Source of the DNA: Escherichia phage Ec_O157kw
Sequence record: PV857777.1
DNA length: 64,000 bases
Strand: one strand, 5' to 3'
The notes below the pieces were generated by a model. The model was not told the origin of the DNA. It saw only the letters and a program-made list of their open reading frames with translations, and did no database searches. The translations under genes and the position numbers were made by a program. Positions 44,909-45,073 of the stretch are shown here, piece by piece; position 1 is the first letter of the stretch, and each line of letters begins with the position of its first letter.

Positions 44909-45073
44909 ATGAAAACATATAAAGAATTTATCAAAGAAGATATGGTCGCTGGAGATTCAGGTGGTAGTCCTGAAAATATCTCTACTGGAACAACATCAGG
45001 CGCTGTAGTAAATAAAGGTCCTGAACAGATTCCTAAAAAGAAAAAAGAGGAATCTAAAGAAAAAGAAGAGTAA
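44909..45073 (+). CDS. Micro-protein with capsid-targeting-like N-terminus
   Basis: 54 aa MKTYKEFIKEDMVAGDSGGSPENISTGTTSGAVVNKGPEQIPKKKKEESKEKEE; first 10 aa resemble the IP capsid-targeting sequence MKTYQEFIAE; below track cutoff. Confidence 0.4.
   Translation: MKTYKEFIKEDMVAGDSGGSPENISTGTTSGAVVNKGPEQIPKKKKEESKEKEE

Follow-up and report, generated by a model that had tools for sequence, protein, structure and literature searches.

Gene 61.1 of T4-like phages joins a capsid-targeting-like leader to a copy of the gp23 N-fist and may encode a head-associated peptide

The DNA analysed here (hereafter, the window) is a stretch of 64,000 nt from Escherichia phage Ec_O157kw (PV857777.1) and represents a segment of Tequatrovirus (T4-like) type. 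[quoted passage not shown] According to the original prediction, the prohead protease would cleave after the leader, and the remaining peptide of about 44 residues would be packaged and injected with the DNA as an immediate-early anti-defence factor. The ORF was identified as T4 gene 61.1 (NC_000866 18966-19130), which is annotated as 'hypothetical protein' and whose product in T4, MKTFKEFIKEDMVAGDSGGNPENISIGTTSGAVVNKGPEQIPKKKKEESKEKEE, starts MKTFKEFIKE. The locus in the window is 99.7% identical to those of Escherichia phages TH09 and JLBYU22. A literature search on 61.1 function returned genome tables only, and no functional study was found.

The ORF was confirmed at 44909-45073; the ip gene (931) lies 44 kb away, and a 2-nt gap separates the ORF from the ATG of gene 61 (Table 1). 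The preceding ORF runs to the end of its stop codon at 44907, ahead of the 61.1 ATG at 44909, and the start-codon context was found to include a good ribosome-binding site (GAGG, 5 nt 5′ of the ATG). At the other end, the 3′ end of the tail overlaps the translation-initiation region of gene 61. The make-up of the protein was correctly described at the outset as Gly/Ser-rich and then Lys/Glu-rich, the first part being rich in Gly, Ser and Thr, and the predicted mature 44-mer is acidic overall, with a pI of 5.0. The genes form a tight unit in the order dmd (43120), 61.4/tifA (43304), sp (43622), 61.2/adfA (43917), an adfA-like paralogue (44551), 61.1 and 61, and the promoter-like site 5′ of dmd probably drives this packed unit. 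Coming after dmd, tifA, sp and adfA, 61.1 has the location expected of a member of the 41-61 anti-defence island; this interval was described as an anti-toxin island by Srikant et al., who listed its other genes only as candidates.

Table 1. Positions in the window of 61.1, its component parts and the features with which it was compared.
Feature	Position	Strand	Remarks
61.1 ORF	44909-45073	+	54 codons, ATG start; translation MKTYKEFIKEDMVAGDSGGSPENISTGTTSGAVVNKGPEQIPKKKKEESKEKEE
Shine-Dalgarno GAGG of 61.1	44900-44903	+	ATG 5 nt further on; direct reading
61.1 codons 1-10, MKTYKEFIKE	44909-44938	+	CTS-like leader/propeptide
Last three leader codons of 61.1, I-K-E	44930-44938	+	fits the gp21 cleavage motif (L/I)xE
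61.1 codons 11-38, DMVAGDSGGSPENISTGTTSGAVVNKGP	44939-45022	+	N-fist-like core, homologous to gp23 66-93
61.1 codons 39-54, EQIPKKKKEESKEKEE	45023-45070	+	Lys/Glu-rich charged tail
TAA stop of 61.1	45071-45073	+	gene 61 ATG 2 nt later
Gene 61, DNA primase	45076-46104	+	downstream neighbour of the 61.1 family, conserved across T4-like phages
Sigma-70-type promoter-like site, TTTACA-17-TATAGT with TG	43062-43090	+	5′ of dmd
Internal-protein gene	931-1404	+	157 aa, canonical CTS MKTYQEFITE; comparator for 61.1
Late-promoter consensus TATAAATA	889-896	+	35 nt 5′ of the IP gene at 931

No sequence 5′ of 61.1 matched the late promoter exactly. On the + strand of the window, TATAAATA occurred only at 889, 6759 and 47713, and the late-promoter sites near 61.1 were limited to ones with a single mismatch. 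A MotA-box-like sequence, TGCTTTTA, was present at 44887 (+) with TAATAT about 10 nt further on (window 44887-44910), overlapping the start codon of 61.1. A functional site here would initiate transcription inside 61.1 and could therefore serve gene 61 only. A second copy of the MotA-box-like TGCTTTTA at 44529 (+) arises from the adfA-like duplication. This duplication concerns a 118-aa ORF (44551-44907, +) between adfA (61.2, 43917-44549) and 61.1, which is a partial paralogue of the C-terminal half of AdfA; both proteins end IDDQIFNAFMN(K/R)G and a VKDN...I motif is common to them. Since 61.2 is followed directly by 61.1 in T4, the 118-aa ORF looks like a tandem partial duplication of the anti-DarT gene. 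On the far side of gene 61, a hydrophobic ORF of 66 aa (46101-46301, −) lies between genes 61 and 56, together with a terminator-like hairpin at 46267-46286 (+). In Mosigvirus ST0, too, an annotated minus-strand CDS directly follows the primase gene (L019 3006-3162).

The leader MKTYKEFIKE was compared with the CTS, MKTYQEFIAE, and with the leader of the IP encoded in the window, MKTYQEFITE; 8/10 residues were identical in each case. At the nucleotide level, 27 of the first 30 nt of 61.1 are identical to those of the ip gene at 931, leaving three differences, and these two were the only ORFs in the whole window with a CTS match of at least 5/10. The likeness extends past the first 4-5 residues, as Y4, F7, I8 and E10 are all kept. 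According to a review of Black's work (PMC9026906), CTS residues 4 and 7 mainly govern targeting, and 8 and 10 processing; 61.1 is identical to the CTS at all four. The two residues that differ, K5 and K9, are each found in genuine IP leaders of Dhakavirus JS10 (MKTYKEFITE and MKTYQEFIKE, respectively), and residues 8-10 (I-K-E) agree with the (L/I)xE motif of the prohead protease gp21. A leader consisting of a CTS plus a gp21 site is a credible description.

The three IPs of T4, IPI, IPII and IPIII (Mullaney & Black 1996; PMC9026906), resemble 61.1 in their 10-residue leader, MKT(Y/F)xEFIxE, which ends in the gp21 motif (L/I)xE, and the targeting residues (4 and 7) and processing residues (8 and 10) are identical. 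In contrast to the IPs, 61.1 lies outside the ip locus and has no late promoter upstream, whereas the ip gene of the window has one at 889. Furthermore, T4 61.1 is acidic and the IPs are basic, and while products of the hyper-variable ip locus are poorly conserved, 61.1 is highly conserved across genera (1,479 records) and has a body that is a fragment of the capsid protein. The 61.1 leader itself is degenerate in other genera, reading MKSFKEVMNE in JS10 and MIGFKQFVEE in RB49. No co-variation of 61.1 leaders with IP leaders was found, the IP leaders of JS10 being canonical alongside its MKSFKEVMNE, and no CTS-like ORFs were present in the 50 kb of RB49 examined.

To identify the body of the protein, the PDB was searched with phmmer, and T4 gp23 was the top match, with 61.1 residues 4-39 aligning to gp23 59-94, FGSFLTE↓AEIGGDHGYNATNIAAGQTSGAVTQIGPA (the arrow marks the junction after the cleavage Glu, here and below). 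A profile built from 26 long-form homologues (described below) matched gp23 in the PDB at E=1.1e-6 and the mature gp23* chains at 2-5e-5; against 177,635 sequences, this profile gave nothing below 0.5 beyond gp23. The reverse search, with a profile of four gp23 N-termini against the 1,646 stop-to-stop ORFs of the window, returned 61.1 as the only significant match (E=6e-8), the second-best ORF being at E=0.55. The ungapped identity between 61.1 and gp23 is 13/32, which was equalled by 0/200,000 shuffles. The aligned part of gp23 consists of the end of the propeptide, the gp21 cleavage residue Glu65 and the N-fist, with the Glu10↓Asp11 junction of 61.1 in register with Glu65↓Ala66 of gp23 (L-T-E65). 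A GD.G....NIA.G.TSGAV...GP motif is found in both proteins. The homology reaches about 15 residues upstream into the gp23 propeptide, and no similarity of 61.1 to gp23 was found past residue ~94. A role as a Gol/Lit decoy was also considered; the Gol region of gp23 is situated just downstream of the N-fist.

The N-fist corresponds to gp23 residues 66-91 (PMC7136217); on cleavage it turns into the N-terminus of mature gp23, and it clamps adjoining capsomers once the head has expanded. It is disordered in the prohead and on expansion goes to the outer surface, where it contacts four subunits in two capsomers and helps to build the Soc site (PMC9958956, PMC9546572). With respect to gp23 as a whole (PDB 5VF3, 6UZC, 7VS5), significant homology extended across gp23 51-99 and placed the cleavage Glu in register, but 61.1 lacks the HK97-fold shell domain (Pfam PF07068, which begins at gp23 residue 88). 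Neither the short nor the long 61.1 form matched any Pfam or NCBIfam model. As a free peptide with a charged tail and no HK97-fold body, 61.1 cannot be a shell subunit. Some database records label 61.1 homologues as 'major capsid domain-containing protein', and no source model for this label could be traced in Pfam/NCBIfam. A further candidate role, mimicry of a portal-binding gp23 'whisker', was ruled out, as whiskers belong to the portal protein gp20.

Orthologues of 61.1 proved abundant in related genomes, tblastn identifying homologues in 1,479 phage records that include phages of Escherichia, Klebsiella, Aeromonas, Acinetobacter and Vibrio. Residues 1-54 matched PHROG 1823 (the short form) end to end at 2.4e-33, and the protein also matched the C-terminal third of the 156-residue PHROG 2086 (the long form) at 2.3e-16; both PHROGs are annotated as unknown function. 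With a full-length profile match and a place upstream of the primase gene 61, the ORF is a member of the 61.1 family. Synteny upstream of the primase was observed in Tequatro-, Mosig-, Karam-, Dhaka-, Krisch-, Biquarta-, Lazarus- and Schizotequatrovirus and in Kyanoviridae. The short form is carried by Tequatrovirus, Dhakavirus, Krischvirus (RB49) and Biquartavirus. In most T4-like genera, a long form of ~155 residues has a helical N-domain (108 residues) in place of the leader, followed by ...QKEIFEALPLFE↓DMVAGDSGG...GAVVNKGP...KKRKR; its carriers include Mosigvirus ST0, Karamvirus CC31, Acinetobacter, Yersinia and Citrobacter phages and KVP40-like vibriophages. In T4, the N-domain is gone but the capsid-like peptide has hardly changed. 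The Glu ahead of the core was invariant in the 41 long and 15 short forms, and P3, two positions before it, was L, I, V or M in nearly all of these, which is the gp21 (L/I)xE pattern. The tail is basic (KKRKRIK...) in most other genera.

When the long form was modelled with AlphaFold (mean pLDDT 64), confidence was moderate for the helical N-domain and the core was disordered (pLDDT <50), as would be expected for a segment that orders only upon docking. The model had no match in the PDB and only uncharacterised viral relatives in BFVD; these fold searches were uninformative, and the N-domain thus gives no functional clue. Some Tequatroviruses carry T6-type variants (P0002 and P0004) in which a 62-aa 61.1 has a frameshifted tail (KKKKRNLKKKKSKNVINTLD), whose 8 extra codons should read into the start of gene 61. 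As the N-fist core is intact and the tail altered in these variants, the tail is less constrained than the core.

The close coupling to gene 61 raises the alternative that 61.1 has no protein function and is only an upstream frame coupling translation into gene 61. The 2-nt gap, the overlap of the tail codons with the gene 61 initiation region and the failure to detect the protein in T4 proteomics would all be in keeping with this. However, the core amino acids are conserved across genera with diverged DNA, 15 columns of the short forms are invariant, the profile matches at 2e-33 and a homologue has been detected as a protein. This alternative is therefore most improbable, and protein-level conservation has effectively refuted it already.

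The detected homologue is Gp036 of Yersinia phage phiR1-RT, a 61.1 long form of 160 aa, which was found in purified particles by LC-MS/MS (PMC6893735, Tables S3 and S4). It was identified by 9 unique peptides with 61.9% coverage and a score of 44, a level similar to those of gp12, gp2 and scaffold proteins, while carry-over enzymes were much lower (scores 7-18). Listed as 'gp61.1 conserved hypothetical protein', it was re-annotated as structural by the authors, who also warn that some non-structural proteins co-purified with the particles (PMC6893735). In P0066, the nearly identical homologue of phage TG1, the junction reads PVLE↓SMVAGN. A coverage of 62% for Gp036 implies that the N-domain is also in the particle, so that complete removal of the propeptide is not evident. 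In the same particles, gp57B (Gp142) was present near the level of the 61.1 homologue (9 peptides, 65% coverage; PMC6893735 Table S3), and this conserved 'non-structural' T4 protein may be particle-associated. The long form may also be compared with the ejection proteins of giant phage SPN3US (PMC5694885), which likewise have an N-terminal region of >100 residues before a prohead-protease site; there is, however, no homology, cleavage of the long form is putative, and its N-domain peptides seemingly remain in phiR1-RT particles.

For T4 itself, 61.1 RNA was classed as early and the 61.1 protein was undetected in an infection time-course proteome. In the same dataset, the ipII and ipIII RNAs were likewise classed as early, and early RNA was combined with late protein for gene 40, which serves head assembly and belongs to the early cluster of 61.1. 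A T4 head mass-spectrometry paper makes no mention of 61.1, a peptide of 4.6 kDa being easily missed.

Early transcription and the lack of a late promoter would suit a second alternative, in which 61.1, made early and left unpackaged, serves as a cytoplasmic decoy for the gp23 N-terminus and its cleavage site. It might, for example, buffer stray gp21 (a CBASS trigger) or occupy a host factor or immune sensor of the gp23 N-terminal region. The exact copying of the gp23 cleavage cassette, the adjoining anti-defence genes and the report that CBASS CD-NTases sense gp21 activity at I/LxE-type loops (PMC12991175) are also in its favour. Such mimicry, including the examples given, is nevertheless considered unlikely: the ~28 conserved residues on the P′ side go far beyond the recognition needs of gp21, the long form is present in purified phiR1-RT particles at structural-protein levels, and the leader retains the residues required for capsid targeting.

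The wider family was then surveyed with the long-form profile, which retrieved 1,798 representative proteins at E<=1e-3 from a library of 1.84 billion proteins. Most of these have only the N-domain in common, with various C-termini, and the N-domain relatives occur in replication and nucleotide-metabolism modules. In marine Kyanoviridae, the pieces of the family are distributed among neighbouring ORFs. In phage C48C1, an N-domain ORF precedes a second ORF of 58 residues, MKTFQEFMKQFEEE↓ITNNTSQVPGAGSDSS...RKKYDRKNKRK, with the same layout of leader, peptide and basic tail as T4 61.1, and three leader-bearing ORFs (MKSFKDFQNV, MRTYRAFKKD and MKTFTDFSTD) were found at the locus of pelagiphage HTVC008M. 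The presence of leaders at both loci indicates that the MKT(F/Y)xxF leader was not simply borrowed from T4 ip genes.

In HTVC008M, gp139, gp142 and gp143, all with M(K/R)(T/S)(F/Y)xxF starts, cluster around the N-domain gene gp141 (L018 15583-18427), and ~0.1 such starts would be expected by chance in the 49-kb stretch of this phage. The gp139-gp143 region may represent an ip-like locus of marine T4-like phages that encodes proteins tagged with such leaders. A DUF7207 (PF23837) gene was located closely or immediately 5′ of the N-domain gene in two uncultured marine contigs (L010 6563-6946 and L007 2035-2409), forming a conserved gene pair with it; HTVC008M gp140 (L018 16006-16371), Melnitz_28 and C48C1_100 are DUF7207-like by sequence resemblance only.

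Tracking of capsid type was analysed by local alignment of family peptides with the capsid N-termini of seven phages. Straboviridae peptides scored 75-101 (z 10-18) against Straboviridae capsid N-termini and only ~20-40 against marine ones. The marine peptides, most of which were unpaired metagenomic sequences in this comparison, had their best scores against marine capsids; the peptide therefore follows the capsid at the level of lineages. Examples are P0137, APTNSVASGQVS, with the C48C1 capsid, GPTNSVAGGQVS (z 8.7), P0179 and P0133, EE↓IANV(V/T)G, with the HTVC008M capsid, GE↓IANVTG (z 4.0-4.3), and HTVC008M gp143, QQE↓DIANVAGDGAV, with that phage's own gp23 (z 3.3). The peptide-capsid alignments were in register at the cleavage Glu and some ran into the propeptide (ILENQEK motif). 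C48C1 ORF102 showed no significant resemblance to the capsid N-terminus of C48C1 itself, and marine members are mostly without an (L/I)xE motif at the junction. For cognate pairs counted by eye, identities were 14/32 in T4, 17/32 in RB49 and 18/32 for a genus-level Vibrio pair (PG216 peptide with phi-ST2 gp23); non-cognate pairs within Straboviridae gave 14-16/32, slightly below the cognate ones, the N-fist being too conserved for this comparison to have power; the informative comparison was the one between families.

These contexts bear on a third alternative, that the job of the family is tied to the flanking helicase-primase genes and that the capsid-like part is a vestige of the capture of a gene-23 fragment. 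The gene stays syntenic with the primase from T4 as far as pelagiphage HTVC008M, genes of replication and nucleotide metabolism (DUF7207, RNR, ThyX) adjoin it, and 61.1 is translationally coupled to gene 61. Such a role is very unlikely, however, given that T4 dropped the N-domain yet kept the capsid-like peptide nearly intact, that the peptide tracks lineage-specific capsid N-termini and that the homologue in phiR1-RT is particle-associated.

The original prediction can now be considered in its two halves. The half concerning the CTS, the cleavage site and packaging has held up as plausible, given the I-K-E site, the Glu in register with that of gp23 and the presence of Gp036 in phiR1-RT particles. 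The other half, in which gp21 frees a 44-mer that enters the next host along with the DNA and acts at once against its defences, found no support and is unlikely. It could draw on the resemblance of the leader to a functional CTS, on the particle-associated homologue and on the neighbourhood of dmd, tifA and adfA within the 41-61 'anti-TA island'. Like Dmd, TifA (61.4) and AdfA (61.2), 61.1 is small and in the same transcription unit; unlike them, it is far wider spread, has a capsid-derived sequence and has no demonstrated target. The body is a conserved copy of the gp23 N-fist with no effector-like fold. The gene is also near-universal and syntenic from Straboviridae into Kyanoviridae, whereas accessory anti-defence genes are patchy. 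In addition, a 4.6-kDa peptide could leak through the 14-17 Å capsomer openings (PMC9546572), and no defence system countered by 61.1 is known.

At this stage, the product of 61.1 was postulated to be a prohead-targeted, gp21-processed, head-associated N-fist peptide. This is the favoured reading, although its chances are put at slightly less than even; it is more probable than injection of 61.1 as an anti-defence factor. Comparison across the family suggests a gp21 substrate, since the whole cleavage cassette (P and P′ sides) is kept behind either a 108-residue domain or a 10-residue leader. As gp21 is active only in assembled proheads, cleavage of 61.1 would imply prohead entry. Parallels exist in the vertex protein gp24 (10-residue propeptide MAKINELLRE) and in gp67 and gp68, from which a short N-terminal piece ending in LxE is removed by gp21 in the prohead; gp67 and gp68 are small prohead core proteins that yield internal peptides, as predicted for 61.1. 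In contrast to these three, 61.1 belongs to the early replication genes, away from the block of head genes, and no sequence homology extends past the motif.

In the proposed mechanism, the early dmd-to-61 transcript would yield 61.1 protein, which would persist and be carried by its leader into the prohead core during assembly. The place of the leader would be taken in most other genera by the 108-residue N-domain, which a gp23-propeptide-like linker connects to the N-fist-like core. Cleavage by gp21 would follow Glu10, matching the cut of gp23 after Glu65, and the resulting 44-residue peptide would stay on the head, docking on the shell like the N-fist. The released peptide might fill N-fist grooves near the gp24 vertices or the portal, might explain the density under gp24*, or might be lost. 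In the 3.4 Å map of the T4 head, density below the P domains of gp24* has been left unassigned, and the peptide is a candidate for it. However, gp24 residues 11-20 already take up part of the neighbouring hexamer surface, which weakens the idea of vacant N-fist pockets at the vertices. Also counting against the head-associated peptide are the lack of a late promoter, the undetected T4 protein, the drifted leaders and the marine junctions that are mostly without (L/I)xE.

A broader version of this proposal, given only a modest chance of being correct, is that T4-like phages from Straboviridae to Kyanoviridae encode an unrecognised head component or assembly regulator that co-evolves with its cognate capsid, i.e. 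an N-fist supplied 'in trans'. Such a component would be a separate product copying the propeptide end, the maturation site and the N-terminal clamp of gp23, in T4 as a CTS-tagged protein of 54 residues. After gp21 cleavage, it would act where gp23 cannot, for example by the gp24 vertices or the portal.

While 61.1 itself is already annotated, no paper was found that describes its dual CTS/N-fist nature, its long and short forms, the tracking of capsid type or the particle association. The assembly of the T4 head is among the best-studied morphogenetic pathways and its parts list is regarded as essentially complete. If the proposal is true, 61.1 would add to this pathway a component or regulator encoded outside the head gene block, and would offer a candidate identity for unexplained cryo-EM density. 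It would also mean that the CTS leader predates the ip loci and has a wider distribution, as similar MKTFxxF leaders are carried at this locus by pelagiphage and further marine T4-like phages, and 61.1 would constitute a natural minimal cargo for T4 protein-packaging platforms.
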